DNA from: Acidimicrobiia bacterium
GTDB lineage: Bacteria > Actinomycetota > Acidimicrobiia > Spongiisociales > UBA5794
DNA: 64,000 nucleotides
Assembly (NCBI GenBank): GCA_027036355.1
Contig: JALVQZ010000250.1
Span: 3,596-67,595, forward strand
Direction: 5' to 3'
The number at the start of each line of letters is the position of its first letter. Positions within the stretch are counted from its first letter, which is position 1. Shown here in pieces: positions 1 through 59,144 of the stretch. The position numbers and the translations under genes are program-made. The notes beneath the pieces are model-generated. The model saw nothing but the letters and a program-made list of their open reading frames with translations, searched no databases and had not been told where the DNA came from.

Positions 1-389
1 GCGTCATCGGGCTTGTTCTCGGTGTTCTCGGTGTGCTTCTTCTCGGACCAGATTCGTGGCAGGAGGTCCTTGCGGGAGCGGTCTTGGCGTGGAGCGTCTC
101 TCTAATCGTGTGGGCGAGGACCTCATACCGTCGTGAGCGCACCGAGTTGGAACAGGCCTTGAGCCGCGCGGCCGAGACCGACGTTCTGCATGCTCGGTTG
201 AACAAGATCTGTGCGGTACTCGGGATTCCACCACTCGATCTGGACTCGGAGCTCCAAGGTGCTATTGACGCCCGGAAGGAGCGCCTGGCCCATTACGCGG
301 GACTCGACGAGTACAGGTCGGGATCTCATGCACAGGGATGCCCTGAGGGGTTCTGGGATGAGGTAGCACTCGGCTGGACTGAGAAGTAG
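1..389 (+). CDS. Hypothetical membrane/coiled-coil protein, 5'-partial (reading frame open to window edge)
   Basis: Frame 3 is open from nt 3 to TAG at 387-389. Translation starts VIGLVLGVLGVLLLGP..., with two hydrophobic segments followed by a charged helical region. Local GC is lower than in the rest of the window. Confidence 0.4.
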   Translation, partial: VIGLVLGVLGVLLLGPDSWQEVLAGAVLAWSVSLIVWARTSYRRERTELEQALSRAAETDVLHARLNKICAVLGIPPLDLDSELQGAIDARKERLAHYAGLDEYRSGSHAQGCPEGFWDEVALGWTEK

Positions 390-597
390 TGCATCGCTAT
401 GGCGGTAGAGCTGATCCTGAGGTGACGGCGATCGTCCACGAGAGCTCCGAGTGCCGTCGACGGGATCGCCATCGGCGAAGTCAAGGTGAGTGCAACCGAC
501 CTGGCTACGGCGATTAGTTCTGGAAGGCCCGTTCTGCCGGGGACCGGCGATGCCTTGACGCGTCAGGTGCACTTCACGGCCCTGCGATAATGCATGC

Positions 598-1662
598 ATG
601 GCGTGGGACAGTCAGCTGTTTCTGGAGCAGCTCGAGGCATTGCTAGTGAGATATGGCGAGGAGGGGACCGCCCTCCAGAAGGAGCTGGGGCAGCTCTACC
701 GCACCGCCGCGAAGGAGATCGTGGACGACGAGCTTAGCGATCTCGCTATGGAGCTATCTGAGAGGAAGGCCCATGCGGCGGCCTTCCGAACTCGCCTTCG
801 AGCCCGATGGGGCTACGCCCTCGATCTGTTCGAGCTGCTCTTGGGCCACTGTTGGGACATCGGACAGGGAACAAACGAGCACTACCGCTCGCTTGCTGTT
901 GAGACGCAGAACCATCGGTTTGAGGCCCTTACTCGCCTCCACGGCAAGGCCACACTTACCGCTTCAGAGATCCTGGTACTTCTTGAGACAGGCCATGCAG
1001 TTGGTGCGATGGCACGGTGGAGAACACTTCACGAAGTCGATGTCGTGTCAGCTTTTCTGTATCAAAACAGTGACGACATCGCGTATCGATACCTGCGGTA
1101 CGAGGACGCTCAAACGCTGAAGATGCGGCGTGCGTACGACAGGTATCACCAGCGACTTGGATACGAGCCTAGCGATCCCGAGATAGACGGGGATCCAGAG
1201 CAGTTAAGAAAGGCACTGGTCGATGAGTTTGGGCACGACTTCCTAGAAAAGAATGGTTGGGCGATCCCCGTGTTCGGGAAGAGACCGACGGACGCGGAGA
1301 TCGAGGAAGCAGCGCGGCTGGACCACTATCGACCCTACTACTACTTGGCTAGCGACGCCGTCCACGCCACTCCCAAGGGACTGATGGCGACGATGCAACA
1401 GATCGGCGATACGCCCATGATCATGGCCGGACCGTCAAACGCGGGGTTGGCCGATCCTGGTCACGGCGCCGCTCTGTCGCTGGCTCGTTGTACGATCACC
1501 TTGATCAACTACTGCGGCATGGATCTGCGAGAGGATCCGGAGCTAGATGAACAGGTGAGCGTTCTGCTCACCACACACATGCTCCTGGAGCTGGCGGATC
1601 GGATTGGGAACGCTTTCGGCGAAGCTCACGAGCAGCTCATGGAAGACGAGAGTCTTGGATAG
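598..1662 (+). CDS. Hypothetical alpha-helical protein (354 aa), lower-GC accessory gene
   Basis: Clean 354-aa ORF with ATG at 598 and protein-like composition (not Arg/Pro-rich). No confident family assignment from sequence alone. Local GC is about 58-60%, against about 70% for the window. Confidence 0.55.
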   Translation: MAWDSQLFLEQLEALLVRYGEEGTALQKELGQLYRTAAKEIVDDELSDLAMELSERKAHAAAFRTRLRARWGYALDLFELLLGHCWDIGQGTNEHYRSLAVETQNHRFEALTRLHGKATLTASEILVLLETGHAVGAMARWRTLHEVDVVSAFLYQNSDDIAYRYLRYEDAQTLKMRRAYDRYHQRLGYEPSDPEIDGDPEQLRKALVDEFGHDFLEKNGWAIPVFGKRPTDAEIEEAARLDHYRPYYYLASDAVHATPKGLMATMQQIGDTPMIMAGPSNAGLADPGHGAALSLARCTITLINYCGMDLREDPELDEQVSVLLTTHMLLELADRIGNAFGEAHEQLMEDESLG

Positions 1663-1935
1663 CAGGGGACGTGCTGTTCTGGGGAAACCAACGACGTCGC
1701 TATCGAGCGTAAGCCCATGGGATGCCTGGAGTGTCGGAAACCAGGTCGCACACTGATCCTCTTCTCCCGACTCGTCCGGCATCATCGGTGTCTTCAATGG
1801 CGCGGCCTAACCATTCCTGTGCAGACCTGCGGAGAGGGCGTGCTGAGGTGGCGGTTGCCGTCGCGTCCGAGGACGCTGGCGTGATGGTCAGGCCCTCCCC
1901 TCTGGTTGTTAGGGGGCTTCTGGCAGCCGGCGCTG

Positions 1936-2823
1936 TCAGTCGGCATCTGCGGCTCCCAGGGTGCGTTCGACGGCAGCGTTCAGGCGTTGCAGATAGGAGT
2001 ACGTTTCGAGCAGGAGTAATCCAGCGCCGGAGTCGTTGAAGTAGCGTTCGAGGTAGTCCGTCTCGTTCCCACGAGGATGCACGCCGTAGTTTCGCAACTG
2101 CCGCATGAGGCTGGCCTGGCTGACGAGCTCGTCTGCCTCACCTCGCGGCGGGACGCGCCGTAGGAGTTCTGCGACACGATTCACGACCTTGGCGGTGCGA
2201 TCCTCATCGAGGGCCTTGTCCAGCTGGTTGTCGAGGTGGCGTAGCTTCTCCCCGGCCGCGTACCAGGCTCCCTCACTTGCCGCACCGAGAAGACTCGCGG
2301 TAGCTAGGTGGAGGCCCTGTCGATACGCAGCGAGAGCTTCCAGGATGCAGCGACGGGTTCGACGGTCGAGAGCGAGCGTTTCGAGGTTTGCGGTGAAGAT
2401 GTCCGGCTCGAAGAACCACTCCTGGCCTACGAACCGTGGTGCGAGGCGATACGCGGGGGAGAACTGTCCGAGGCGAGACCGGATCGCGACACTGGTCCCG
2501 ACGGATCCGAACTGATAGGGGATGCGGATCGCGTCGCCGCCGACGATGGGGTTGGAATCCTCGTGTCGAGGGGGCTCGGCGACGGGTACGAGAATCCCCT
2601 GCGACACTAGATCCTGTACGGCCTCGGCGGCGGCCAACGCCAACCGGTATGCCGCGATTATGGGCTGTCCCGGGTGCACCACTCCGCCGATCGCTTCCGC
2701 GGACGTGACCTCCAGACGAGCCCCATCCGCGGGCTCCGGGAGCCCCTCCTGTTCGATGAGACATCGCTGGAGCTCGCGGATTCCGTGTGGCGCGCCATCA
2801 GCCACGATCTCGCGGATCTGCAT
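1936..2823 (-). CDS. HEPN-like domain protein (C-terminal R-x4-H motif RNYGVH), putative toxin/RNase of an Abi/TA-like pair
   Basis: ORF 1936..3144 (minus). The N-terminal 107 codons are Arg-rich and not protein-like. The first ATG is at 2823-2821 (MQIREIV...), and a GTG near 2895 preceded by AGGAG is an alternative start. The C-terminus carries ...LMRQLRNYGVHPRGNETDYLERYF..., which matches the HEPN Rx4-6H signature. Confidence 0.5.
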   Translation of the reverse strand: MQIREIVADGAPHGIRELQRCLIEQEGLPEPADGARLEVTSAEAIGGVVHPGQPIIAAYRLALAAAEAVQDLVSQGILVPVAEPPRHEDSNPIVGGDAIRIPYQFGSVGTSVAIRSRLGQFSPAYRLAPRFVGQEWFFEPDIFTANLETLALDRRTRRCILEALAAYRQGLHLATASLLGAASEGAWYAAGEKLRHLDNQLDKALDEDRTAKVVNRVAELLRRVPPRGEADELVSQASLMRQLRNYGVHPRGNETDYLERYFNDSGAGLLLLETYSYLQRLNAAVERTLGAADAD

Positions 2824-3043
2824 CTTGGCTCGAACAGTTTCGGTGAACGACGGCGACACGTTGCTCCGAATGACCGCCTCGAGTTCCTCCTGTCCTCTCC
2901 GCACGGCAGCTCCTGTACGCGAGGTTCTTAGCGTACGACCTCCCCACGACAGAACGGACCCCACGCACAGCGCCGCTGTGGACCCGTCGCCGAGAGGGCG
3001 GCTTGAGACGCGCAGACGGACGTCGGGATCAAGACGGCGATTG

Positions 3044-3793
3044 TCAGCGTGCCAGTGCCACGCTCTGGCGCACCCGTCGCTCCGCACGGAGTCGACGCTG
3101 CCGCAATGTTTGTGCGTGCACACCGGTCGCGGCGGCCAGCTCATCCACGGAAACGACTCCGGCTCGGGTCAACACCACCAGCCGGGCAGCGTTCTCATGA
3201 ACTCGGCCGTGCGTACGCACCCAATCGATGAGCTCGTCGAGTCGTTGTTCGTCTGCGCCGGGCCTATTGGGGTTGTCAGTCCCCTCGACGTCGGACAGGT
3301 CGTCCCTGAAGACCACCGGCTCCGCCCGGTCCCGAACCGCCGCCCGCAGCACCCGACGACGCGTGTTCTCATACACCCGAAACGAGGGCGGCGTTCCCGC
3401 AGGCTGCGCCGCGCACCATGCCAACACCTCCACCGCAGCAGCCACCACCCGAGCCGCCCGCTCCTCGACGTCCCAGCCCCGAATACGATCGATCAGGCTC
3501 TTCAATCCCGGTAGCACCACCTGCAGCGCAACCCGCTTCGCCAGGACATCGTCGGGTACCCGTTCCAACAGTGCCGCTAGCACCTGGTCCCGTTCCCTCC
3601 ACGACGATACGTCACGACGCTGAGCCGCCGCCACCAACTCCACCCCGTCGGCGAACGCCAGGCGCGGATCCTCGGTAGCCCAGCTTTGCAGCCGCTCTCG
3701 CAGCCATCGCGACCGAGCCAACGCCTGCCACTCCGCTTCCAGCCGGCGGATGAGCTGTGTCTCCCTTGCCCGCCGTGGGCGACGGTTGTCCAA
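3044..3793 (-). CDS. HTH regulator with sigma-70 region-4-like C-terminal domain
   Basis: 249-aa ORF. The C-terminal segment VSVDELAAATGVHAQTLRQRRLRAERRVRQ resembles a sigma region 4 / LuxR-type HTH. It lies immediately upstream of the HEPN-like gene on the same strand. Confidence 0.45.
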   Translation of the reverse strand: MDNRRPRRARETQLIRRLEAEWQALARSRWLRERLQSWATEDPRLAFADGVELVAAAQRRDVSSWRERDQVLAALLERVPDDVLAKRVALQVVLPGLKSLIDRIRGWDVEERAARVVAAAVEVLAWCAAQPAGTPPSFRVYENTRRRVLRAAVRDRAEPVVFRDDLSDVEGTDNPNRPGADEQRLDELIDWVRTHGRVHENAARLVVLTRAGVVSVDELAAATGVHAQTLRQRRLRAERRVRQSVALAR

Positions 3794-4035
3794 CGACGCT
3801 CCTCTCGTACGACGAGAGCGAGCGTGAAGAAGGGGTGCTCCAACGGGATCTCAGTTCTGTCTCGAGGCCAACTCCAAGAGGGCTCCGGGAGACCGGGACG
3901 ACGGGCTTTGGACGCGTTTTGGACGCGAAATGTCGAAAGATGCCGAACGACGCTGAGCAACGACGAAACCGAAAAGCCCTGGTAGTGCAGGCATTCTGCC
4001 GAATCAGCCCGCTTCTCGGCGGTCATCGATACGGA

Positions 4036-4078
4036 CTCATAATCCGTCGGTCGCAGGTTCGAGTCCTGCCGGGCCCAC
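4036..4078 (+). repeat. tRNA-Met 3' half fragment (anticodon loop CTCATAA, T-arm GCAGGTTCGAGTCCTGC, acceptor CGGGCCC+A), att-scar-like direct repeat, copy 1
   Basis: The segment folds as anticodon stem ACGGA/TCCGT with loop CTCATAA (anticodon CAT), variable loop, T-stem GCAGG/CCTGC, T-loop TTCGAGT and acceptor 3' strand. The complementary 5' acceptor strand GGGCCCG and a D-arm are absent upstream, so this is not a complete tRNA. It is identical over 43 nt to 10272-10314. Confidence 0.6.
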
Positions 4079-4274
4079 TGGCGAAAGCCCGCGTGGTTAT
4101 TGGGGTTTCGGCGTTTCTGATCCCGTCGTACTCACGCCTAGGTCGCCGCCAGGCCGCGCTCAGGCCGCGGGAATCTGAGGAACCGCGGCCTGCGACCGGG
4201 TTCATCGGTGGTGCTGGGGGGTCCGTCTGGTGCGGGGAGAGGTATTGGGGACGTCACGAAGGGCGACGTGACGC

Positions 4275-4769
4275 TCAGTTCCTGGCAGTCACTCGTCGGA
4301 GGCGTTGCAGCGCCCGGCGGTATCGCTGCCGGGCTGTGGCGGGGTGGAGTCCGATGGTGTCGGCGATCGTGCGGAAGCCTCGCTCGCCGAGGATCCGGAG
4401 GGTCACGATCGTGCGATCGGGTGGAGCCAGGGAGGCGAGAGCGGCCGTGGCTTCGAAGGCCATGTGACGGTCGACCACCTGGTCGGCGGTGGGATCTGTA
4501 TCGGGAGGGCTGATCGTCGCGGCGAGCTGCTCCGGACACGTCCGTTTCCGGGTTCGATGCCGGTGGCGGGTGACGTTGTGGGCCACGGTCATGAGCCAGG
4601 CGATCGGCATCGGGCAGTCGGCGAGCCGGTCTCGCCGGACCCAGGCCGTCAGGTACACGTCGGCGAGGGCGTCGTCGATCTCGTCTTGGGGTAGCTGTCG
4701 GGCCAGGTAGCGCCGTACCCGTGGGACGGTGTCGTGGTACGTGTCGGTCCACCACCGGTCGTCGCTCAT
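4275..4769 (-). CDS. ECF-family RNA polymerase sigma factor (sigma-70 regions 2 and 4)
   Basis: ORF 4275..4850. The likely start is the internal ATG at 4769 (MSDDRWW...). Region-2-like DEIDDALADVYLTAWVRRDRL and region-4 HTH RTIADTIGLHPATARQRYRRALQRLRR are present. TGA stop at 4275-4277. Confidence 0.75.
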   Translation of the reverse strand: MSDDRWWTDTYHDTVPRVRRYLARQLPQDEIDDALADVYLTAWVRRDRLADCPMPIAWLMTVAHNVTRHRHRTRKRTCPEQLAATISPPDTDPTADQVVDRHMAFEATAALASLAPPDRTIVTLRILGERGFRTIADTIGLHPATARQRYRRALQRLRRVTARN

Positions 4770-4849
4770 CGGTTCCTCCTCGCCGTCTCGGTTCATATGT
4801 GTCCGGCACGGGTGCGTCCGTTTCACCTTGTTCAGTGTCCGGATACCCA

Positions 4850-5030
4850 TGATTCGTCGCGGGAGGGTTTTGGGTTCCCGGGGGGACGAGGAAGATCGCG
4901 CGTCACATTCCGTCCTCTGCGGGCATTACAGGGGTAGGAGACACCGGCGAAGAGGTGTCGCGGAAGGAAGGAATGCAGGATGGGATCGAGTTTGCGGCGT
5001 CTGACATCGATCGGACTGACCGCGGCTGCG
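4850..5030 (+). repeat. About 175-bp duplicated promoter/leader plus signal-peptide-start module, copy 1 (second copy at about 6540-6730)
   Basis: Near-identical stretches: ...gggttcccg...gtcacattccg.ctctgcgggcattacaggggtaggagacaccggcgaagaggtgtcgcggaag...atgggatcgagtttgcggcgtctgacatcga.cggactgaccgcggctgc. Both copies sit upstream of, and run into, the 5' ends of secreted-protein ORFs. Confidence 0.7.
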
Positions 5031-5501
5031 TTGGCGTTCTTCTCGACCGCGCCGGCCTGGGCGGGTTCCCCACCCGATGCTGCGGTGACGCCGGCTCCCT
5101 CGGTCGTCGAGCGCACCGCGCCCGCGGAACCGCTCGGGGGACCGGGGGTGCTCTCGAACGGCGCGGATTGTCAGGGATGCTACGCCTGGGCCTCGATCAA
5201 CGAGTACAGCTCGTGGCCCGGCGTCAAGGTGCGAGCGAAGACACGGAACTACGCAAGCGAGATCATCGATCGTCAGGAAGCCCATCTCGCCTTGGTTGCC
5301 GGCAGCGCTTGCTACCAGGGTGACTACAAGTACACGGGCGGAACGGGCTACGAGTACAACCGGGAGGACGGCTCCCTCGTCGACTCGGGCTGGAAGTACG
5401 GCGGCCACGGCTGGTGGACGAACGCCAATGGCCATGAGTGGCTGGACGACGGCGCGACTTGGACCGTGTCGGGTGGTGCCGATGTCTGCCGGCAGTACTG
5501 A
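4980..5501 (+). CDS. Secreted hypothetical protein (signal peptide MGSSLRRLTSIGLTAAALAFFSTAPAWA)
   Basis: 173-aa ORF. RBS-like aaggaagga lies upstream. The N-terminus has a signal peptide ending AWA, and the mature part is Gly/Tyr/Trp-rich. The stop TGA overlaps the ATG of the next gene (ATGA at 5499-5503). Confidence 0.6.
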   Translation: MGSSLRRLTSIGLTAAALAFFSTAPAWAGSPPDAAVTPAPSVVERTAPAEPLGGPGVLSNGADCQGCYAWASINEYSSWPGVKVRAKTRNYASEIIDRQEAHLALVAGSACYQGDYKYTGGTGYEYNREDGSLVDSGWKYGGHGWWTNANGHEWLDDGATWTVSGGADVCRQY

Positions 5502-6541
5502 TGGGCCCGCAGACGGCAGTCGTGTGGCGGCTGGTCGGCTTGAGCGTGGCGGCGGCCCTCCTCGCCGCGGCATGCCAGGCACCGACCCGTCCCGCGGCCA
5601 CGGCGTCGTCGTCATCGTCGGTCCCGCCGTCGAGGGTCGCCTCTGTCGTCGTGGGGCAGGTGGCTCCTCCGACCGGGTTCCGCGGCGGTGTGCTCACTGG
5701 GATCGGCCTCACGTTCGATCCTGGTGAGGGCGTGGAGGACTGGGCGTGGAAGCTTCCCGCCGTCGCTCCCGAGCACGTGGCTGCCACGGTCCGGTTCACC
5801 ACGGAACTGTTGAACCTGAACTGTGAGAGCTTCCCGGCGCGGCTCGCTTGCCCGGCTCCTGAGGACGCGGTGCTGCTCCATCGTCTGTCCGGGCTCTGGG
5901 ATCTGGACCGTCGGGTGGTTTTCCAGGGTGTGGGAGGAACGTCCGGCCGGGTCGACATCTACCGCGCGGGACCGGGGCGTCAGGAAGACGACGTGGACTT
6001 CGCGCTCCCCGGAGCCGAGAGGGGGGCGCATTGTCTCGTGCTTGCCGCGTTCGAGGATGACGCTACGATCGTCGAAGGACAGTTCCCGGACCACTCGAAC
6101 TCGGGATTGTGGCTGGTCTCCGTCGGTTCCGATGATCCGGATCGGTGTGGAGCCCCCGACTATGAGGGACGTTGGTGGCCGATGGACGAAGACGGGATCG
6201 TCCTCGGCGACTGTGCAGAGCCGTTCCTCACCGATCGACCCCGACAGTACGCGGCCGGCGTGGCAGCGGACACCGACGGGTTGTGGGCGGTGCTGCCGCG
6301 TTGTGGAACGCCGGGGACCTCCTTCGCGGTGTTCGCCGTCGATGGGGTCCTCCAAGGCGCCGGTGACACGTTGGCGCCGTTCCGGATCCCCGCCACCGAT
6401 GCTCCCGGTGTCGTCGTTCCCGTCGACCGGTCCGACGGGTGGCTGCGCGTATTGGTCGCTGCCCGCCGCCCAGGCAACGACCACGGGCCTCGAGTGCTCA
6501 GGAGCCGACCCTGGCTGCCGAACGGTATGGCAGGACCATGA
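5501..6541 (+). CDS. Putative lipoprotein (hypothetical)
   Basis: Internal ATG at 5501 (MGPQTAVVWRLVGLSVAAALLAAACQAP...) gives a lipobox-like LAAAC. It is translationally coupled to the upstream secreted-protein gene. Confidence 0.5.
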   Translation: MGPQTAVVWRLVGLSVAAALLAAACQAPTRPAATASSSSSVPPSRVASVVVGQVAPPTGFRGGVLTGIGLTFDPGEGVEDWAWKLPAVAPEHVAATVRFTTELLNLNCESFPARLACPAPEDAVLLHRLSGLWDLDRRVVFQGVGGTSGRVDIYRAGPGRQEDDVDFALPGAERGAHCLVLAAFEDDATIVEGQFPDHSNSGLWLVSVGSDDPDRCGAPDYEGRWWPMDEDGIVLGDCAEPFLTDRPRQYAAGVAADTDGLWAVLPRCGTPGTSFAVFAVDGVLQGAGDTLAPFRIPATDAPGVVVPVDRSDGWLRVLVAARRPGNDHGPRVLRSRPWLPNGMAGP

Positions 6542-6730
6542 CACGCTGTGTAGTTCGTCGCGGGACGGTTTCGGGTTCCCCGGGCCGGCGAGGAAGATCC
6601 CGTGTCACATTCCGCCGTCTGCGGGCATTACAGGGGTAGGAGACACCGGCGAAGAGGTGTCGCGGAAGCAATGCTCGATGGGATCGAGTTTGCGGCGTCT
6701 GACATCGACGGACTGACCGCGGCTGCATTG
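6540..6730 (+). repeat. Duplicated promoter/leader module, copy 2
   Basis: See copy 1. This copy differs by scattered substitutions and a 1-nt deletion (atcgatcggact -> atcgacggact) that shifts the downstream reading frame. Confidence 0.7.
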
Positions 6731-6868
6731 GTTCTCGCCATCGCTTCGCTGCCAGCTTCCGCCGGGATGGTGCTGGACGAGCTTGGTGTCGAAGATGCGG
6801 GAGGAGCGGCAGTGCAACCGGCGGGGGGGAGTGTCAGGAATACGGTGTATCTGCCTGTTGGCCTGTGA
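6671..6868 (+). CDS. Small hydrophobic-leader protein (65 aa), paralogous remnant of the 4980 gene family
   Basis: ATG at 6671 gives MLDGIEFAASDIDGLTAAALVLAIASLPASAG MVLDELGVEDAGGAAVQPAGGSVRNTVYLPVGL. It shares the 5' nucleotide sequence with gene 4980 but uses a different frame because of the 1-nt indel. Confidence 0.3.
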   Translation: MLDGIEFAASDIDGLTAAALVLAIASLPASAGMVLDELGVEDAGGAAVQPAGGSVRNTVYLPVGL

Positions 6869-6903
6869 TGCTGATCCGTCTGGGTTAGCGGAAAGGACAG
6901 GCA

Positions 6904-7251
6904 GTGACGGAAGTTACGAAGCCGGCGAGGACGCCGGAGGACAAGCAGCTCGCTGAGGAGCTCGTGGAGCGCGCCCGCGATGAGGGTGTGGATCTTGTTG
7001 GCCCCGGCGGGTTGCTGACGGGTCTCACGAAGAGCGTGCTCGAGGCCGGCCTGGAAGCGGAGATGACGGAGCATCTCGGCTACGACAAGCACGATCCGCA
7101 GGGTCGGGAGGCGGACCTGCGGGCACGGGAGCATCGCCTCGACCTGGTGTCCCGGCTCGCCCGGGGGAAGGCGGCAAGCCCGAAGGTGGGCCGCAACGAA
7201 CGGTGCCCCTGCGGCTCCGGTCGCAAGTACGAACACTGCCACGGGCGGTGA
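6904..7251 (+). pseudogene. IS256-family (mutator-type) transposase N-terminal fragment fused to a SEC-C metal-binding motif
   Basis: 115-aa [41 protein letters not shown] matches the conserved N-terminus of IS256-family transposases. The ORF ends with [17 protein letters not shown], a SEC-C motif. The catalytic DDE region is missing. Confidence 0.55.
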
Positions 7252-7273
7252 GGGCCGACGGGCTCTGAGCCGT

Positions 7274-8139
7274 CTACGTGCCGCCCTTCTCCTCAAGGGC
7301 GGTGAGGAGTCGGGCGACGAAGGTGATGCAGGTGGTTTGGATGGTGGCGGCGTCGAGGATGCCGGTGAGGGCGCGGACGGCCATCCGGGTTCCAAGGCTG
7401 CGGGGTGTGCCGAACAGCGAGTCGAGCAGGGTGACGGCGATCCGGGTCACTTCGGCGCAGCGGGGGTCGTCGAGGAGCAGACAGACGTCCCGTCCGATGC
7501 CCTCGGGTGTCGTGGACATGAAGATGCGCAGGACGTCGCCGGCGTCCTTGTCGGTGAGCCGGTCCGGTTGTTCGCGTCGGTCGTCGATCTTGTGAACCTT
7601 GGCCACCAAGAGGGCGGCAGGGCCGGCGACGTCGACGACGATGCGTCGAGGGTCGGCGTCGTCGAGGGCCCGGATCTCGATGGGCGAGTGGTCCACGAGG
7701 GAGCCTTCGAGGCCGGTGGTCTTGCGGGCGGCACGCTTGCCGTGCTCGCCGCCGAGGCGAACCCCTCGGCGTCCTCCCGGCGGTGCGACCGCTGTGGGCA
7801 CGATGAGGTCCACCGGGACGACCAGATCGTCGATGCGACCGGGGACGGTGATGTGGGCCTCCCAGATCCCGGGTTCGGGATGACCGGTGTCCTCGTTCTT
7901 GAGGCGGAGTCCGGCCTGACGCATGGCGGCTTCGAGACCCGGGCGGGCTGCGAGGAGGTGCGGGTCGATGGTGAGGTCGGCGTCGGTGGTGTGCGGCGGA
8001 TAGCCGGGGAGCGGCACCGTACGCAAGTAGACGGCCTGGGCGCCGACGAGGACCAGCGCGTCGAGGTGATCCGTCAGGGCGTCGAGCACGTCGAGAAGGA
8101 CGCTGCGGGCAGCCACGTACTCCGGGTCGAACGTCGTCA
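7274..8139 (-). CDS. Nucleotidyltransferase of the AbiEii/AbiGii (DUF1814) toxin family
   Basis: The in-frame part of ORF 7274..8791 begins at ATG about 8139 (MTTFDPEYVAARSVLLDVLDALTDHLDALVLVGAQAVYLRTVPLPGYPPHTTDADLTID...). The GG/A-x-A-x...R-x-T-x-D-x-D nucleotidyltransferase motif of the AbiEii family is present. The upstream 218 codons of the ORF are Arg/Pro-rich artefact. Confidence 0.6.
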
Positions 8140-9282
8140 TCGGTCGGGCAGCGGATTCGGGGAGCCGGCGAAGTCGTCGGCTCGCCACCGGCCCTCGTTG
8201 GCGCGCATCCACTCGACCAGGGCTTGGCCTTCGGCCGGCATTCTCCCGATGCCGGTGAGACAGTCCGCGGCGAGCTGGGCGGCCGAGACATAGGTCACCT
8301 CGTCGGCGTTCCAGGAGCGGGCGTAGGCGGCGGCGTCGTAGGGGCGGGCGAGGATGACGTTGGCGCCGACATCGGCGGGAAGGAGCCCAAGCGTCTCGGC
8401 GATCTCGGCAGGGTCGTCGGCGTAGATGACGGCGACCGCCGGGGCTGCCACCGGTGCAAGCAGGTTGGCGCCCAGGGATCCGGTGACCGCCCAGCGGGTT
8501 TCGAGTTGAGATGCCGCCAGCGCCGCAGGCAGGTCCCGGACGACGCCGGGGGCGATCCACGTCGAGGTGGCGTTGGCATCCAGCAGGCGGTAGGTGCTCG
8601 TGAGCTGGGTGAGCAGACCTGGCCAGTCCACCTCGGTCACCGGGCCCCGACGTTCCCGGAACGCCAGCCGTTCTTCTTCCAGGACTTTGAGAACGCGAGA
8701 CGTGTAACCGGGGTCGGTGCCGACGGCGGCAGCCAGCACTCGGACACCGTAGGGGGGCCTCACCTCGATCATCGTCTTGAGCAGCGCCCACGCCTTGGGT
8801 CCCCGAAGGCTGGGGGAGGCCGGCTGCTTCGGTGCGGGGTTCTGCTCCGCTCCGTCGACGCGCACGACGAGACCGGGCTCGTCGAGGACCAGGTCGACGT
8901 TGCCCGTCGGGTCCATGAACCCGACCCCGAGTCGTCGAAGGACCCCGCGGGTGCGGCGGCTTCCCCAGGGTGCAACGACGAGCCCTTGCCCGTCAGGGTT
9001 CTCGCTCAGGTAGGACCGGAGCCGCGCCGCGACCTCGGCGGCGATCTTCGGAGTGATCTCCGGCTCGTACCCGACGATCAGCCGAGCCTCGCGCCCGCCT
9101 CCCGGCGCCTCGACGGTGATCGTCGCGTCGGGTCGCCACGCCCCACGTGGGGGACGAGGTTGCATCTCCACGTCGACCGACCACGACGACGGGAGCTGAG
9201 CGCGCAGCACCTCGAACGCCGACTCGATGATTCGCCGAGCCGAGGTGGCCTTGTTGCCTGTGCGGGCCGGAACTGTGCTCAT
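8137..9282 (-). CDS. Winged-HTH protein, putative AbiEi-like antitoxin/regulator partner of the downstream nucleotidyltransferase
   Basis: 381-aa ORF with a central wHTH-like segment GVRVLAAAVGTDPGYTSRVLKVLEEERLAFRERRGPVTEV. Its TGA stop overlaps the ATG of the nucleotidyltransferase gene (minus-strand ...CCGATGACG...). Confidence 0.5.
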   Translation of the reverse strand: MSTVPARTGNKATSARRIIESAFEVLRAQLPSSWSVDVEMQPRPPRGAWRPDATITVEAPGGGREARLIVGYEPEITPKIAAEVAARLRSYLSENPDGQGLVVAPWGSRRTRGVLRRLGVGFMDPTGNVDLVLDEPGLVVRVDGAEQNPAPKQPASPSLRGPKAWALLKTMIEVRPPYGVRVLAAAVGTDPGYTSRVLKVLEEERLAFRERRGPVTEVDWPGLLTQLTSTYRLLDANATSTWIAPGVVRDLPAALAASQLETRWAVTGSLGANLLAPVAAPAVAVIYADDPAEIAETLGLLPADVGANVILARPYDAAAYARSWNADEVTYVSAAQLAADCLTGIGRMPAEGQALVEWMRANEGRWRADDFAGSPNPLPDR

Positions 9283-9392: not shown

Positions 9393-9943
9393 TTGGGCGC
9401 CTCGTGCGAGACTGATGAGGTGTTCACTGTGCATGCGACCAAGAAGCTGCTGAACCGAGTGCGCCGACCGATGATGCCTTCGGTGGTAGATCCGGACACG
9501 GCGCTGGGCAATTGGTACGCTAACGTCCTGTTCTGGCGGCCCCAGGTGGCGCTGCTGGTGAACGAACGGACGCTGTTCCCGGTGTTCATGCCGCTGCGGG
9601 GGCGACGCTCCTCGAGCGGTTCCCCGGTGCTCTCGGAGAGGTGCTTCACGCCCGTGGAGTCCGTGCCGACTTCGTGGCGGCCGAGATGGCGGCGATGTCC
9701 GAGGGCCGATACGCCAAGACGGCGAGCCGCAGCGTCCTCGGGTCGATGAACGAGTTCGTGTATCTCGCCGGAGCCTACCGAGACCGACGGGGAGCGGACG
9801 ATCTGGTCGCTCTGTCACTGTGGTTGGCGCAGACGCCCTGCGGACCGCTGTACGGCAGCCACGTCACCCCCGAGGCTGCGCTGGGCGCCCTCATCGACGA
9901 GTGGGCGGGAGGGCGAAGCCATCGATCAGCACCGACGACGTGA
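9393..9943 (+). pseudogene. Hypothetical gene disrupted by a frameshift at a G-run (ORFs 9393..9749 and 9641..9943 belong together)
   Basis: Frame A gives ...VHATKKLLNRVRRPMMPSVVDPDTALGNWYANVLFWRPQVALLVNERTLFPVFMPLRG. A +1 shift at ctgcggggg gives ...ATLLERFPGALGEVLHARGVRADFVAAEMAAMSEGRYAKTASRSVLGSMNEFVYLAGAYRDRRGADDLVALSLWLAQTP.... Both halves are protein-like. The upstream leader is lower-GC. Confidence 0.4.
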
Positions 9944-10271
9944 CGATGGCTGAAGGGCATGATCTCGGAGGAATGCCGGTCCATGCAGCCAGGGACCATC
10001 TCCGTGGCCCGAAGCCGCGAGCGAAGAGGCGCTCGCTGCGTGTCAGATCGCCGAACTCGGTAGCGAGGCTTGCCTCCGGTCTGCTCGGTCTGCTCGTGGT
10101 GCAGTTGCTGGTCGACCCATGTGAGGAGCCAACCGCCGGCGTCAGGCCGCGGCCAGGCCGCGGGAGGTCGAAAAACGACGGGAAATGACGAAAACGGACG
10201 AGCAGCGAGAACCGTTGCCAGCATTGAGTTTCCGCCGATTCAGTCTGCTCGGTGAAACCCCCCGTTTCGAC

Positions 10272-10314
10272 CTCATAATCCGTCGGTCGCAGGTTCGAGT
10301 CCTGCCGGGCCCAC
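10272..10314 (+). repeat. tRNA-Met 3' half fragment, copy 2 (43/43 nt identical to 4036-4078)
   Basis: Same anticodon-loop, T-arm and acceptor sequence, followed by CCG. No matching 5' acceptor strand or D-arm lies upstream, so it is also a fragment. Confidence 0.6.
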
Positions 10315-10378
10315 CGTCGAGCAGTCCCGTCGGGGTCGTGGCTCTCGCCGGCGTCGAGAGCGTGGTCGGGGTCCGTGA

Positions 10379-12700
<2,322 letters not shown>

Positions 12701-34177: not shown

Positions 34178-34756
34178 TCAGGACTTCAGGGCCATGTTCA
34201 GGCAGACGTGGGTGAGGGGATCGAACCAGCCATCGACCTTCGGGTGGAGCTCGCAACCTTCTTCCAACTTCTCGACCGCCGCCCTCGTGCCCTTGCCGTA
34301 GTCACCGTCGATCGGCCCCGAGTACAGGCCGATCTCCTTCAGATCCTTCTGTAGGTCCTCGACGTAGTCCTTGTCCTTGGCCAGGGCCTTCGCCATCGCC
34401 AGGCCCGTCTGGGGACCGAACTCGCCGTCCACCTCGATGCCGGCGTCCTTCTGGAACGCCGTCACGGCGGCGGTCGTCACCGGGCCGTAGATGCCGTCGA
34501 TGACGTCGTCGAAATAGCCCAGGACCTCCAGGTCCTGCTGGACGGCGTACGTCAGGTCGGTCGCCTGCAGGGTCGGGTCGACCTTGGCGAGGGTCGTGCT
34601 GGTGGTCGACGTCGAGCTCGTCGTGGTCGTCGACGAGGTCGTGCTGGTGGGAGGCGCCGCCGTCGTGGTGGTGGTGTCGACCGATCCGCTCCCCGAACAC
34701 GCTGCCGCGACGAGCGCGGAACCGAAGACGAGAGCGAGTCTGCCCTTGATGCCCAT
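34178..34756 (-). CDS. Lipoprotein with two peptidoglycan-binding (PG_binding_1) repeats
   Basis: 192 aa from ATG 34756. Signal peptide and Cys (LVAAACSGS), a Thr/Ser-rich linker, then two LxxLGYxxxxIDGxxGxxTxxAVxxFQ repeats. Confidence 0.65.
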   Translation of the reverse strand: MGIKGRLALVFGSALVAAACSGSGSVDTTTTTAAPPTSTTSSTTTTSSTSTTSTTLAKVDPTLQATDLTYAVQQDLEVLGYFDDVIDGIYGPVTTAAVTAFQKDAGIEVDGEFGPQTGLAMAKALAKDKDYVEDLQKDLKEIGLYSGPIDGDYGKGTRAAVEKLEEGCELHPKVDGWFDPLTHVCLNMALKS

Positions 34757-58853: not shown

Positions 58854-59144
58854 TCAGGCCTCGGTTCTGAGTCGCCTGATCTCTTCGGCGATGTCGGCGG
58901 CGGCCTGCTCGAGGTCCCGTTGACGTTCCTCGAGCAGCGCCAGGACGTCGTCGACGTCGGCGGGGTCCCGGTGGCGTTCGCCGCCGCAGCAGTGGCCGCG
59001 GCTCGCCCCTGGTCCCATGTCCCGGCGCATGCGTCCGCCCATGCCTGGTCCCATGTCCCGGCGCATGCGTCGACCCATGCCTCGGCCCATGCCTCGGCGC
59101 AGGCCTCGGCCCGATCGCTCGTCGGTGTGTTCGTGACAGCTCAC
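58854..59144 (-). CDS. Small Gly/Met/Arg-repeat protein with C-terminal coiled coil, translationally coupled to PadR
   Basis: GTG at 59144..59142 overlaps the PadR TGA stop. The product contains RGMGRGMGRRMRRDMGPGMGGRMRRDMGPG repeats, followed by HCCGGERH and a helical DVDDVLALLEERQRDLEQAAADIAEEIRRL tail. Confidence 0.35.
   Translation of the reverse strand: MSCHEHTDERSGRGLRRGMGRGMGRRMRRDMGPGMGGRMRRDMGPGASRGHCCGGERHRDPADVDDVLALLEERQRDLEQAAADIAEEIRRLRTEA

Follow-up and report, generated by a model that had tools for sequence, protein, structure and literature searches.

Does a gene for a HEPN-like protein that lies beside a gene for a helix-turn-helix (HTH) protein form with it a toxin–antitoxin (TA) or abortive infection (Abi) module, or does it stand on its own? 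The question is raised by the first positions of the window, a term that here means the whole 64-kb stretch of high-GC (guanine plus cytosine) Acidimicrobiia DNA that was analysed (contig JALVQZ010000250.1). The block of interest covers positions 1-4035. An earlier note, made from the letters of this DNA, had read the block as accessory DNA in which a HEPN-like protein is paired with a regulator resembling region 4 of sigma factors. The HEPN-like part of that reading stood, and the pairing did not. We read the block as a slot for changing cargo in the terminal part of an integrated conjugative element. To judge from its surroundings in related loci, the regulator-like gene is a conserved core gene at the end of that element, upstream of the transfer operon, and no partner of the HEPN-like gene is conserved. 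The 322-aa product of the latter gene is, with good probability, HEPN-like with a predicted catalytic site, on the strength of its conserved residues and of a structural model.

The conjugative element and its cargo slot

The 249-aa protein, encoded on the minus strand at 3044..3793 from a TTG start, is an extracytoplasmic function (ECF)-sigma-like protein with a region-4-type HTH. At least 259 homologue clusters were found, at ~65% identity; among the 120 clusters listed, almost all are ~249 aa long and 62-98% identical (mostly 62-74%), and the few named ones are Acidimicrobiia metagenome-assembled genomes. Sigma70_r4_2 was matched by 23 of 35 family members (best E 5e-6) and Sigma70_ECF, weakly, by 19 of 35 (best E 0.001), while among the families listed no member of the 35 matched Sigma70_r2. 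The window copy, taken alone, is sub-threshold against sigma models, and it aligns with region 4 of a genuine ECF sigma factor encoded at 4275-4850. The C-terminal HTH seen in the earlier note is borne out by this alignment and by the family matches. Matches to sigma models are confined to the C-terminal third of the protein, and region 2 cannot be made out clearly.

In three related loci (L009, L012, and L013), the sigma-like gene is the first gene ahead of a same-strand transfer module, which begins 109-157 bp past its stop codon. The module comprises, in order, a 108/109-aa gene, TcpC, a 91-aa membrane protein, a TcpE-like protein, VirB4 (AAA_10), TrbL, an M23/SLT hydrolase, and a VirD4-type coupling protein. 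It represents a type IV secretion system of the Firmicutes/Actinobacteria type and is complete in L012 and L013 (TcpC, TcpE-like, VirB4, TrbL, cell-wall hydrolase, and coupling protein), and the transfer genes are collinear and 55-91% identical across L008, L009, L011, L012, and L013. From this position, we infer that the sigma-like protein would direct or control transcription of the transfer operon.

The metagenome scaffold L065 is 100% identical to window 1-4086 and reaches 5.6 kb further left. Leftwards from the sigma-like gene, it carries the HEPN-like gene (minus strand), a DUF5677 gene (plus strand), a complete 183-aa gene (plus strand), and a remnant of the sigma gene. After a further 113 bp come the 108-aa gene, TcpC, the 91-aa gene, the TcpE-like gene, and the VirB4-like gene, as far as which the module is visible in L065 and L066, both identical to the window. 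The transfer genes of L065 lie ~3.7 kb from the sigma-like gene, against ~110 bp in uninterrupted elements, and because of this displacement we read the block as ~3.4 kb of cargo placed in a spacer of normally ~110 bp.

The distance from the sigma-like stop codon to the 108-aa gene is likewise extended in other loci, amounting to 3.3-4.8 kb in L008, L011, and the window, and the cargo differs from one to the next. In L005, the same HEPN-like gene is followed by KwaA/KwaB (Kiwa). In L011, the slot holds an opposite-strand operon (4790-8603) of a SMODS cyclase, a QueC/Asn-synthase-like protein, and three unknown proteins, which may be a variant resembling the cyclic oligonucleotide-based antiphage signalling system (CBASS). 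In L008, it holds the gene for an 881-aa PHP-domain protein. The L011 element is closely related to that of the window, its sigma-like gene being 85% identical.

A truncated second copy of the sigma gene lies at the transfer-operon edge of the cargo in three of the three elements that carry cargo (L065, 5020-5229; L008, 13706-13876; L011, 8840-9058). The L065 remnant, 380-589 bp left of the window, retains 70 codons that are 64% identical to residues 180-249. These truncated copies suggest that cargo is exchanged by recombination within the sigma-like gene, between related elements or tandem copies.

The earlier note had the block end at a tRNA-Met scar, and a weak tRNA-Met-like element is indeed present. 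ARAGORN called a tRNA-Met at 4005-4078, the Rfam score of which is only 31.2 bits, and the 3' half (4027-4084) is repeated at 10263-10320 (repeat family D7). The 3' half is tRNA-derived; the 5' half pairs poorly, yet it is kept in related elements. The same scar sequence adjoins sigma-like orthologues in L008 and L011, two Acidimicrobiia contigs, and the 210 bp between the sigma-like gene and the scar (3794..4004), a conserved end region of the element, align with these loci over the whole length. Since the 3' half is repeated and the 5' half is conserved in L008 and L011, we interpret 4005..4084 (plus strand) as a pseudo-tRNA-Met, that is, an attachment scar with a left arm from the mobile element. 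A functional tRNA-Met at 4005-4078 was rejected on the score of 31 bits, the poor pairing of the acceptor and D arms, and the element origin of the 5' half.

A second accessory segment, of 6.2 kb, follows the scar and is bounded by the two direct copies of the tRNA-Met 3' half (4027-4084 and, on the plus strand, 10263..10320), with katG next at 10406-12700. It contains the genuine ECF sigma factor gene mentioned above (4275-4850, minus strand), the start of a secreted-protein gene present twice (4865-5010 and 6567-6708), a SEC-C/Mutator-transposase fragment (6904-7251), and a frameshifted DUF6933 gene (9393-9943). The segment has the look of a tandem copy that integrated into this site as well and has since decayed.

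We consider it likely that window 1-4084 is the right-hand end of an integrative and conjugative element (ICE) of an Acidimicrobiia-like actinobacterium, integrated at tRNA-Met, and that the HEPN-like gene is stand-alone cargo of it. GC is 68.5% in the window, 62.8% in the block, and 69% in the rest of the window, and among its 64 intervals of 1 kb, the two at the start have the lowest values. The range of 58-62% given for the block in the earlier note applies to positions 1-1662 (58.5-61%), that is, to the 5'-partial open reading frame (ORF) at 1-389 (60.9%) and the 354-aa gene at 598-1662 (58.5%). It does not apply to the HEPN-like gene (64.3%) or to the sigma-like gene (67.7%).

Elsewhere, the neighbourhoods of homologues of the HEPN-like gene are typical of mobile and defence DNA. 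Kiwa lies next to the homologue in L005. A 61% identical homologue is found in L007 on an ICE with an integrase, a TrwC relaxase, ArdC, Hypoth_Ymh, and a restriction-like gene pair for a methylase and a ResIII helicase. Integrase fragments and giant helicases lie near the homologue in L002; a Schlafen/AlbA_2 ATPase lies near that of L001, a methylase, a kinase, and a PD-(D/E)XK protein near that of L004, and a 1732-aa NACHT protein with an integrase near that of L071. The sole plasmid match found was a hypothetical relative (26% identity) on the Clavibacter plasmid pCSL1, beside a DUF3800 gene and an insertion sequence element.

Could the HEPN-like protein then serve the conjugative element, as a post-segregational stabiliser or a weapon against competing elements, being transcribed with the transfer operon under the sigma-like regulator? 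Its gene does share the strand of the transfer operon and falls between the regulator gene and the 108-aa/TcpC genes, with no terminator-like site found between it and the sigma-like gene; the L007 homologue adjoins a relaxase gene, and the distant one on pCSL1 is plasmid-borne. However, most elements of the family are devoid of the HEPN-like gene, which is therefore dispensable for transfer, and in the window the convergent DUF5677 gene intervenes between it and the transfer genes. Moreover, homologues are found also in chromosomal islands (L001, L004, and L071) where no transfer genes are visible, and a stabiliser normally needs a cognate antidote, whereas none is conserved here. We therefore regard a role in the service of the element as unlikely and retain the reading of the gene as stand-alone cargo.

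The 322-aa protein and its HEPN-like domain

The HEPN-like gene occupies 1936..2904 on the minus strand (322 codons and a stop) and starts at GTG 2904, with a Shine-Dalgarno sequence (AGGAG) upstream at 2910-2914. Both the GTG and the Shine-Dalgarno sequence are kept in L005/L006, where the gene is 92% identical, and the sequence further upstream is not. The product agrees in length with its homologues (316-327 aa, 100% coverage), and in contigs identical to the window, the gene is also called as 322 aa. The frame is open from ATG 3144, with first 80 codons that are non-coding in character. On the homologue lengths, the Shine-Dalgarno sequence, and the conserved GTG, both a start at ATG 3144 (402 aa) and one at ATG 2823 (295 aa) were rejected; a 440-aa call (P0002) is an over-extension. 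Consequently, the protein of about 296 aa proposed in the earlier note, starting at ATG 2823 or at a GTG near 2895, gives way to one of 322 aa, and the gap to the sigma-like gene shrinks from the 220 bp stated there to 139 bp (2905..3043).

A word-indexed search found 48 homologue clusters, none of which (0/48) has a Pfam domain. An exhaustive profile search found 665 representatives at E <= 0.001 (clusters at 50% identity), almost all with the same ~315-aa architecture. There was no match in PHROG and no copy of the family in the viral contigs or phage records searched.

The motif RNYGVH noted earlier is indeed encoded at 2077..2094 on the minus strand, as R271-N-Y-G-V-H276, an Rx4H motif. 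In an alignment of 32 sequences with identity down to 32%, R271, N272, Y273, G274, H276, and P277 are invariant, as is E211. The conserved residues of the N-terminal domain in the same alignment are P18, R25, A26, K27, and R87.

The AlphaFold2 model of the protein (mean confidence, pLDDT, 92.9) consists of an N-terminal alpha/beta domain (residues 1-164; 2413..2904, minus strand) and a C-terminal helical domain (residues ~165-322; 1939..2412, minus strand). The former is predicted to contain helices at 5-16, 20-34, and 81-101 and strands at 105-108, 125-132, 135-142, and 151-154, and it has no Pfam match. In the latter, the model places four helices (H1, 181-195; H2, 199-224; H3, 255-271; H4, 283-321), with two short inserts between H2 and H3 (226-233 and 237-248). 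R271 would be the last residue of H3 and H276 would lie in the loop that follows, while E211 falls within H2, in the context E-G-A-W-Y; the usual Ex3[KR] is not present.

In the published definition of HEPN domains (PMC3710099), helix 3 ends in an Rx4-6H motif whose R is followed by a polar residue (N, D, or H), helix 2 carries an acidic residue, and inserts stand between these two helices. The 322-aa protein has an Rx4H motif with N after the R, an acidic residue in helix 2, and, in the predicted structure, the corresponding helix arrangement. The HEPN-like character of the C-terminus claimed in the earlier note is thus supported by the invariant R-N-x3-H and helix-2 glutamate, and structure prediction agrees with it, giving a bundle of four helices in which an insert separates the second from the third and the motif closes the third.

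Weak matches to DUF4145 (PF13643) were obtained for 13 of the 32 members (E=0.01-0.17), all of them on the motif region and all under the 23.1-bit cut-off. Profile searches thus gave a recurrent match centred on the motif, none of which reaches the threshold. In Foldseek, the HEPN structures 2q00, 1ufb, 4nqf, and 3o10 were among the top domain-sized matches (probability up to 0.89, TM-score 0.53-0.60).

As every HEPN profile or fold match stays below significance, the C-terminal domain might be a helical bundle that simply carries an Rx4H-like string rather than a HEPN RNase, for example, a regulator that binds nucleic acid or a ligand; the first 60 residues of the model, which look helix-rich and possibly DNA-binding, would suit this. 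However, the R, N, and H of the motif and the helix-2 glutamate are invariant down to 32% identity, and the weak DUF4145 matches recur across the family, aligned on the motif. A bundle of that kind is, in our judgement, improbable, and we keep to the HEPN-like assignment.

Neighbouring genes and the search for a partner

An ORF scan found four ORFs roughly where the earlier note had put them. The two minus-strand genes, described there as convergent, are in fact tandem, and it is with the 354-aa gene (598..1662, plus strand) that the HEPN-like gene converges, across a non-coding intergenic region (1663..1935). In the 139-bp spacer between the two tandem genes, there is no promoter-like or terminator-like site and no Rfam match.

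We examined 58 other loci with a homologue of the HEPN-like gene. By tblastn, a sigma-like gene lies beside the homologue only in L005/L006, overlapping scaffolds of one close relative (HEPN-like gene 92% and sigma-like gene 84% identical), and the DUF5677 gene and the in-window part of the 183-aa gene are found in 0/58. Among 31 full-length loci compared by tblastx of the flanks, those with HEPN-like proteins less than 80% identical share no flanking coding sequence, except for a 72-aa downstream ORF common to L001 and L016. These two approaches were used in place of a six-frame clustering of neighbouring ORFs, which was dropped because shadow ORFs in high-GC DNA and partial matches dominated it.

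A two-gene TA/Abi module, with the HTH protein as regulator or antitoxin of the HEPN-like protein, is what the earlier note had proposed, and the two genes are indeed adjacent on the same strand, 139 bp apart, in the window, and the pair is present in L005/L006 too. However, the genes are not syntenic in relatives, 56 of the 58 loci being without the sigma-like gene, and the order kept in L005/L006 is explained by recent common descent. Furthermore, the sigma-like family is far larger in a like search (at least 259 versus 48 clusters), its genes in the sampled loci precede transfer genes or other cargo rather than a HEPN gene, and even the 92% relative does not conserve the spacer (~420 bp of unrelated sequence versus 139 bp). 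Such a pair is very unlikely; the two genes adjoin because one of them is the backbone gene that flanks the cargo slot.

What the window and L005 have in common is the HEPN-like gene with ~55 bp upstream (roughly 2905-2955) and, at lower identity, a ~230-bp non-coding stretch downstream. The latter (1661-1887) is 68% identical to the region downstream of the HEPN-like gene in L005/L006 by blastn and tblastx, and the gene that follows differs, being DUF5677 in the window and KwaA in L005; we take the stretch as non-coding because indels in the alignment break the reading frame. Three candidates in these flanks were rejected: a small ORF or RNA in the upstream gap, for which the earlier note had seen room (conserved over 55 bp only, and with no match to Rfam or to a promoter or terminator); a structured RNA at 1663-1935 (fold z = -0.38 and +0.82 on the two strands against shuffled controls); and a 50- to 80-aa ORF over the convergent region, called on L065 at 7151-7393, the frame of which is not conserved. 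That the HEPN-like protein is a toxin whose unannotated antidote, a small ORF or an RNA, hides in the 139-bp gap or in 1661-1887 is therefore highly improbable: the downstream stretch is kept despite a different next gene, but indels break every reading frame in it, neither strand folds better than the controls, Rfam gives no match, the upstream gap is not conserved past ~55 bp, and more distant homologues have no common flanking sequence.

The remaining cargo consists of two genes. The 354-aa protein, left without a family in the earlier note, belongs to a known one, Pfam DUF5677 (PF18928; E=1.3e-23, 84.3 bits versus a cut-off of 27.1), and matches phrog_27456 (E=1e-38). It has 529 homologues, and all those listed carry PF18928. 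Its AlphaFold2 model is all-helical (pLDDT 92.7); no PDB fold matched, and a sequence-profile search of the PDB found little or nothing. R140, R142, H145, E146, H256, and W221 are invariant in the alignment, and the string 'ARWRTLHE' is formally an Rx4H. We do not claim a second HEPN domain on this ground: R140 to H145 lie mid-helix in the model, and no HEPN structure was matched.

Relatives of the DUF5677 protein at 62% identity are encoded beside a SIR2_2 gene in L067/L068; in L069, the island around the gene also encodes HsdR and GmrSD and contains a BREX (bacteriophage exclusion)-like pair, a gene for a large DNA methyltransferase plus a DUF499 gene. In Enterococcus, a DUF5677 gene was among nine phage-defence candidates tested and not among the five found active (PMC12632615).

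The 5'-partial ORF (1..389, plus strand), which the earlier note had described as encoding a membrane/coiled-coil protein, consists of the last 128 codons of the 183-aa gene. This gene is complete on L065 (5446-5997) and begins 163 bp before the window. Its product has hydropathy peaks at residues 51-72 and 77-95, that is, two hydrophobic segments; no homologue was found in any other fetched locus, and the Pfam matches are sub-threshold only.

Elsewhere in the window, the repeat scan recorded a 36-nt unit, CCTGGTCCCATGTCCCGGCGCATGCGTCCGCCCATG, in four copies, tandem or overlapping, at 59008-59115. GTCGTG-rich overlapping direct repeats, spaced 9 and 18 nt, lie at 34592-34675 and are probably a repetitive coding segment.

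Proposed action and comparison with known systems

The following scheme would account for the locus. In the window copy, ~3.4 kb of cargo would have been inserted between the regulator and the transfer genes, consisting of three unrelated and independently mobile genes, those for the 183-aa membrane protein, the DUF5677 protein, and the 322-aa HEPN-domain protein. The last would be a self-contained single-gene effector, whose N-terminal alpha/beta domain may keep the protein in an inactive state or detect a trigger, for instance a product of a phage or of a foreign element. The C-terminal HEPN domains would then dimerise to form a metal-independent RNase site composed of R271, N272, H276, and E211, which may cut cellular or invader RNA and so stop the growth of the infected cell (abortive infection).

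More broadly, and tentatively, since we hold it to be somewhat less probable than even, the 322-aa protein may found an undescribed family of single-gene immune effectors (~665 clusters, matched by no model of Pfam, PADLOC, or PHROG and without viral members). In such a family, a new alpha/beta sensor of 160 residues would gate a HEPN RNase, and the gene, with ~55 bp as a cassette, would move through a defence hotspot of Acidimicrobiia conjugative elements that is remodelled by recombination in the duplicated sigma-like gene.

Several observations weigh against the scheme given first, that of a stand-alone HEPN effector carried by an ICE. As regards the HEPN assignment, no HEPN-clan Pfam model was reached at threshold (best E=0.01), the window protein itself being without any match; the Foldseek matches to HEPN structures are not significant (E 0.89 or worse); and a PDB sequence-profile search with the family gave nothing relevant. 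As regards defence, a check of the block against the PADLOC-DB v2 models gave no match at E <= 1 for any of the four proteins, and the association with defence islands is based on a handful of annotated loci rather than on statistics. As regards the element, its integrase, relaxase, and left end were not seen, the left end lying beyond the window and L065 and the right-hand tRNA-Met scar being the one junction in view. The HEPN-like gene, placed between the sigma-like gene and the transfer operon and in the same orientation, may also be co-transcribed with them or have a role in the element. Finally, a distant subclade (~36% identity) has a recurring same-strand upstream ORF (L071, 316-1098; L004, 2304-2654; L049-L053, ~5331-5609; also L047 and L055), so that some relatives may have partners. 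This ORF, which has no Pfam match and is not found in the window, may be a clade-specific partner.

If the scheme given first holds, one more single-gene effector composed of a sensor and a HEPN domain would join the abortive-infection systems, from the poorly studied Acidimicrobiia, known mostly from metagenomes. The N-terminal domain, without match to known families, would be the part most worth study. In addition, a cargo hotspot is now mapped in a widespread family of actinobacterial conjugative elements, and it could be mined for more candidate defence genes, DUF5677 among them. Current concepts are left unchanged, and two known themes are extended, that of HEPN RNases in conflict systems and that of defence cargo on conjugative elements.

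Among known systems, the RNase RAZR (PD-T7-4) combines an N-terminal sensor and a HEPN domain of the DUF4145 type in one protein and acts by abortive infection; its R/H mutants lose defence, and it is activated by ring assembly (PMC13017515). The 322-aa protein resembles it in joining, in one polypeptide, an N-terminal non-catalytic domain to a divergent C-terminal HEPN-like domain, and it would need no partner gene; DUF4145 is the only HEPN-clan Pfam model touched by the family. It differs in its N-terminus, which is a Cys4 zinc ribbon in RAZR and a 160-residue alpha/beta domain without match here, and in the R-to-H spacing, longer in RAZR (R146...H154) than in the Rx4H of the window protein. 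There is no detectable sequence relationship between the two, and no PADLOC model was matched. PADLOC is expected to include PD-T7-4.

The AbiJ, AbiU2, AbiV, Ymh, and DUF4145 fusions (Anantharaman et al. 2013, PMC3710099), HEPN abortive-infection proteins whose N-terminal domains differ from family to family, likewise place the HEPN domain at the C-terminus, behind a domain of unknown role. They have R-[NDH]-x3-H where helix 3 ends and an acidic residue within helix 2, and their genes lie in mobile elements and defence islands. In contrast to these, the window protein reaches no family model at threshold, its N-terminal domain is unrelated to theirs by sequence, and its acidic residue stands in E-G-A-W-Y, not in Ex3[KR]. 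With the HEPN–minimal nucleotidyltransferase (MNT) pairs of TA types II and VII, it shares a HEPN RNase-type toxin domain with Rx4H. However, no MNT ORF or Pfam match is present in 1-4035, no neighbour is conserved across homologues, and the window protein, with an extra domain of its own, is twice the size of a HEPN-MNT toxin.

The element itself recalls two other systems. Orf7 of Tn916 is an example of an ECF/sigma-70-like regulator at the end of a conjugative element, and the 249-aa protein resembles regulators of this type in position and HTH type: a small protein with a region-4-type HTH is encoded just upstream of a co-oriented transfer module of the Firmicutes/Actinobacteria type. It differs in that only its C-terminal third matches sigma models. 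The cargo slot, in turn, is comparable to the cargo and defence hotspots of ICEs, of which SXT/R391 is an example. The element family and the host phylum are others, and at one edge of the slot described here lies a second, truncated copy of the sigma-like gene, but in both cases a fixed intergenic site in a conserved backbone holds a different defence-type cargo in each copy.

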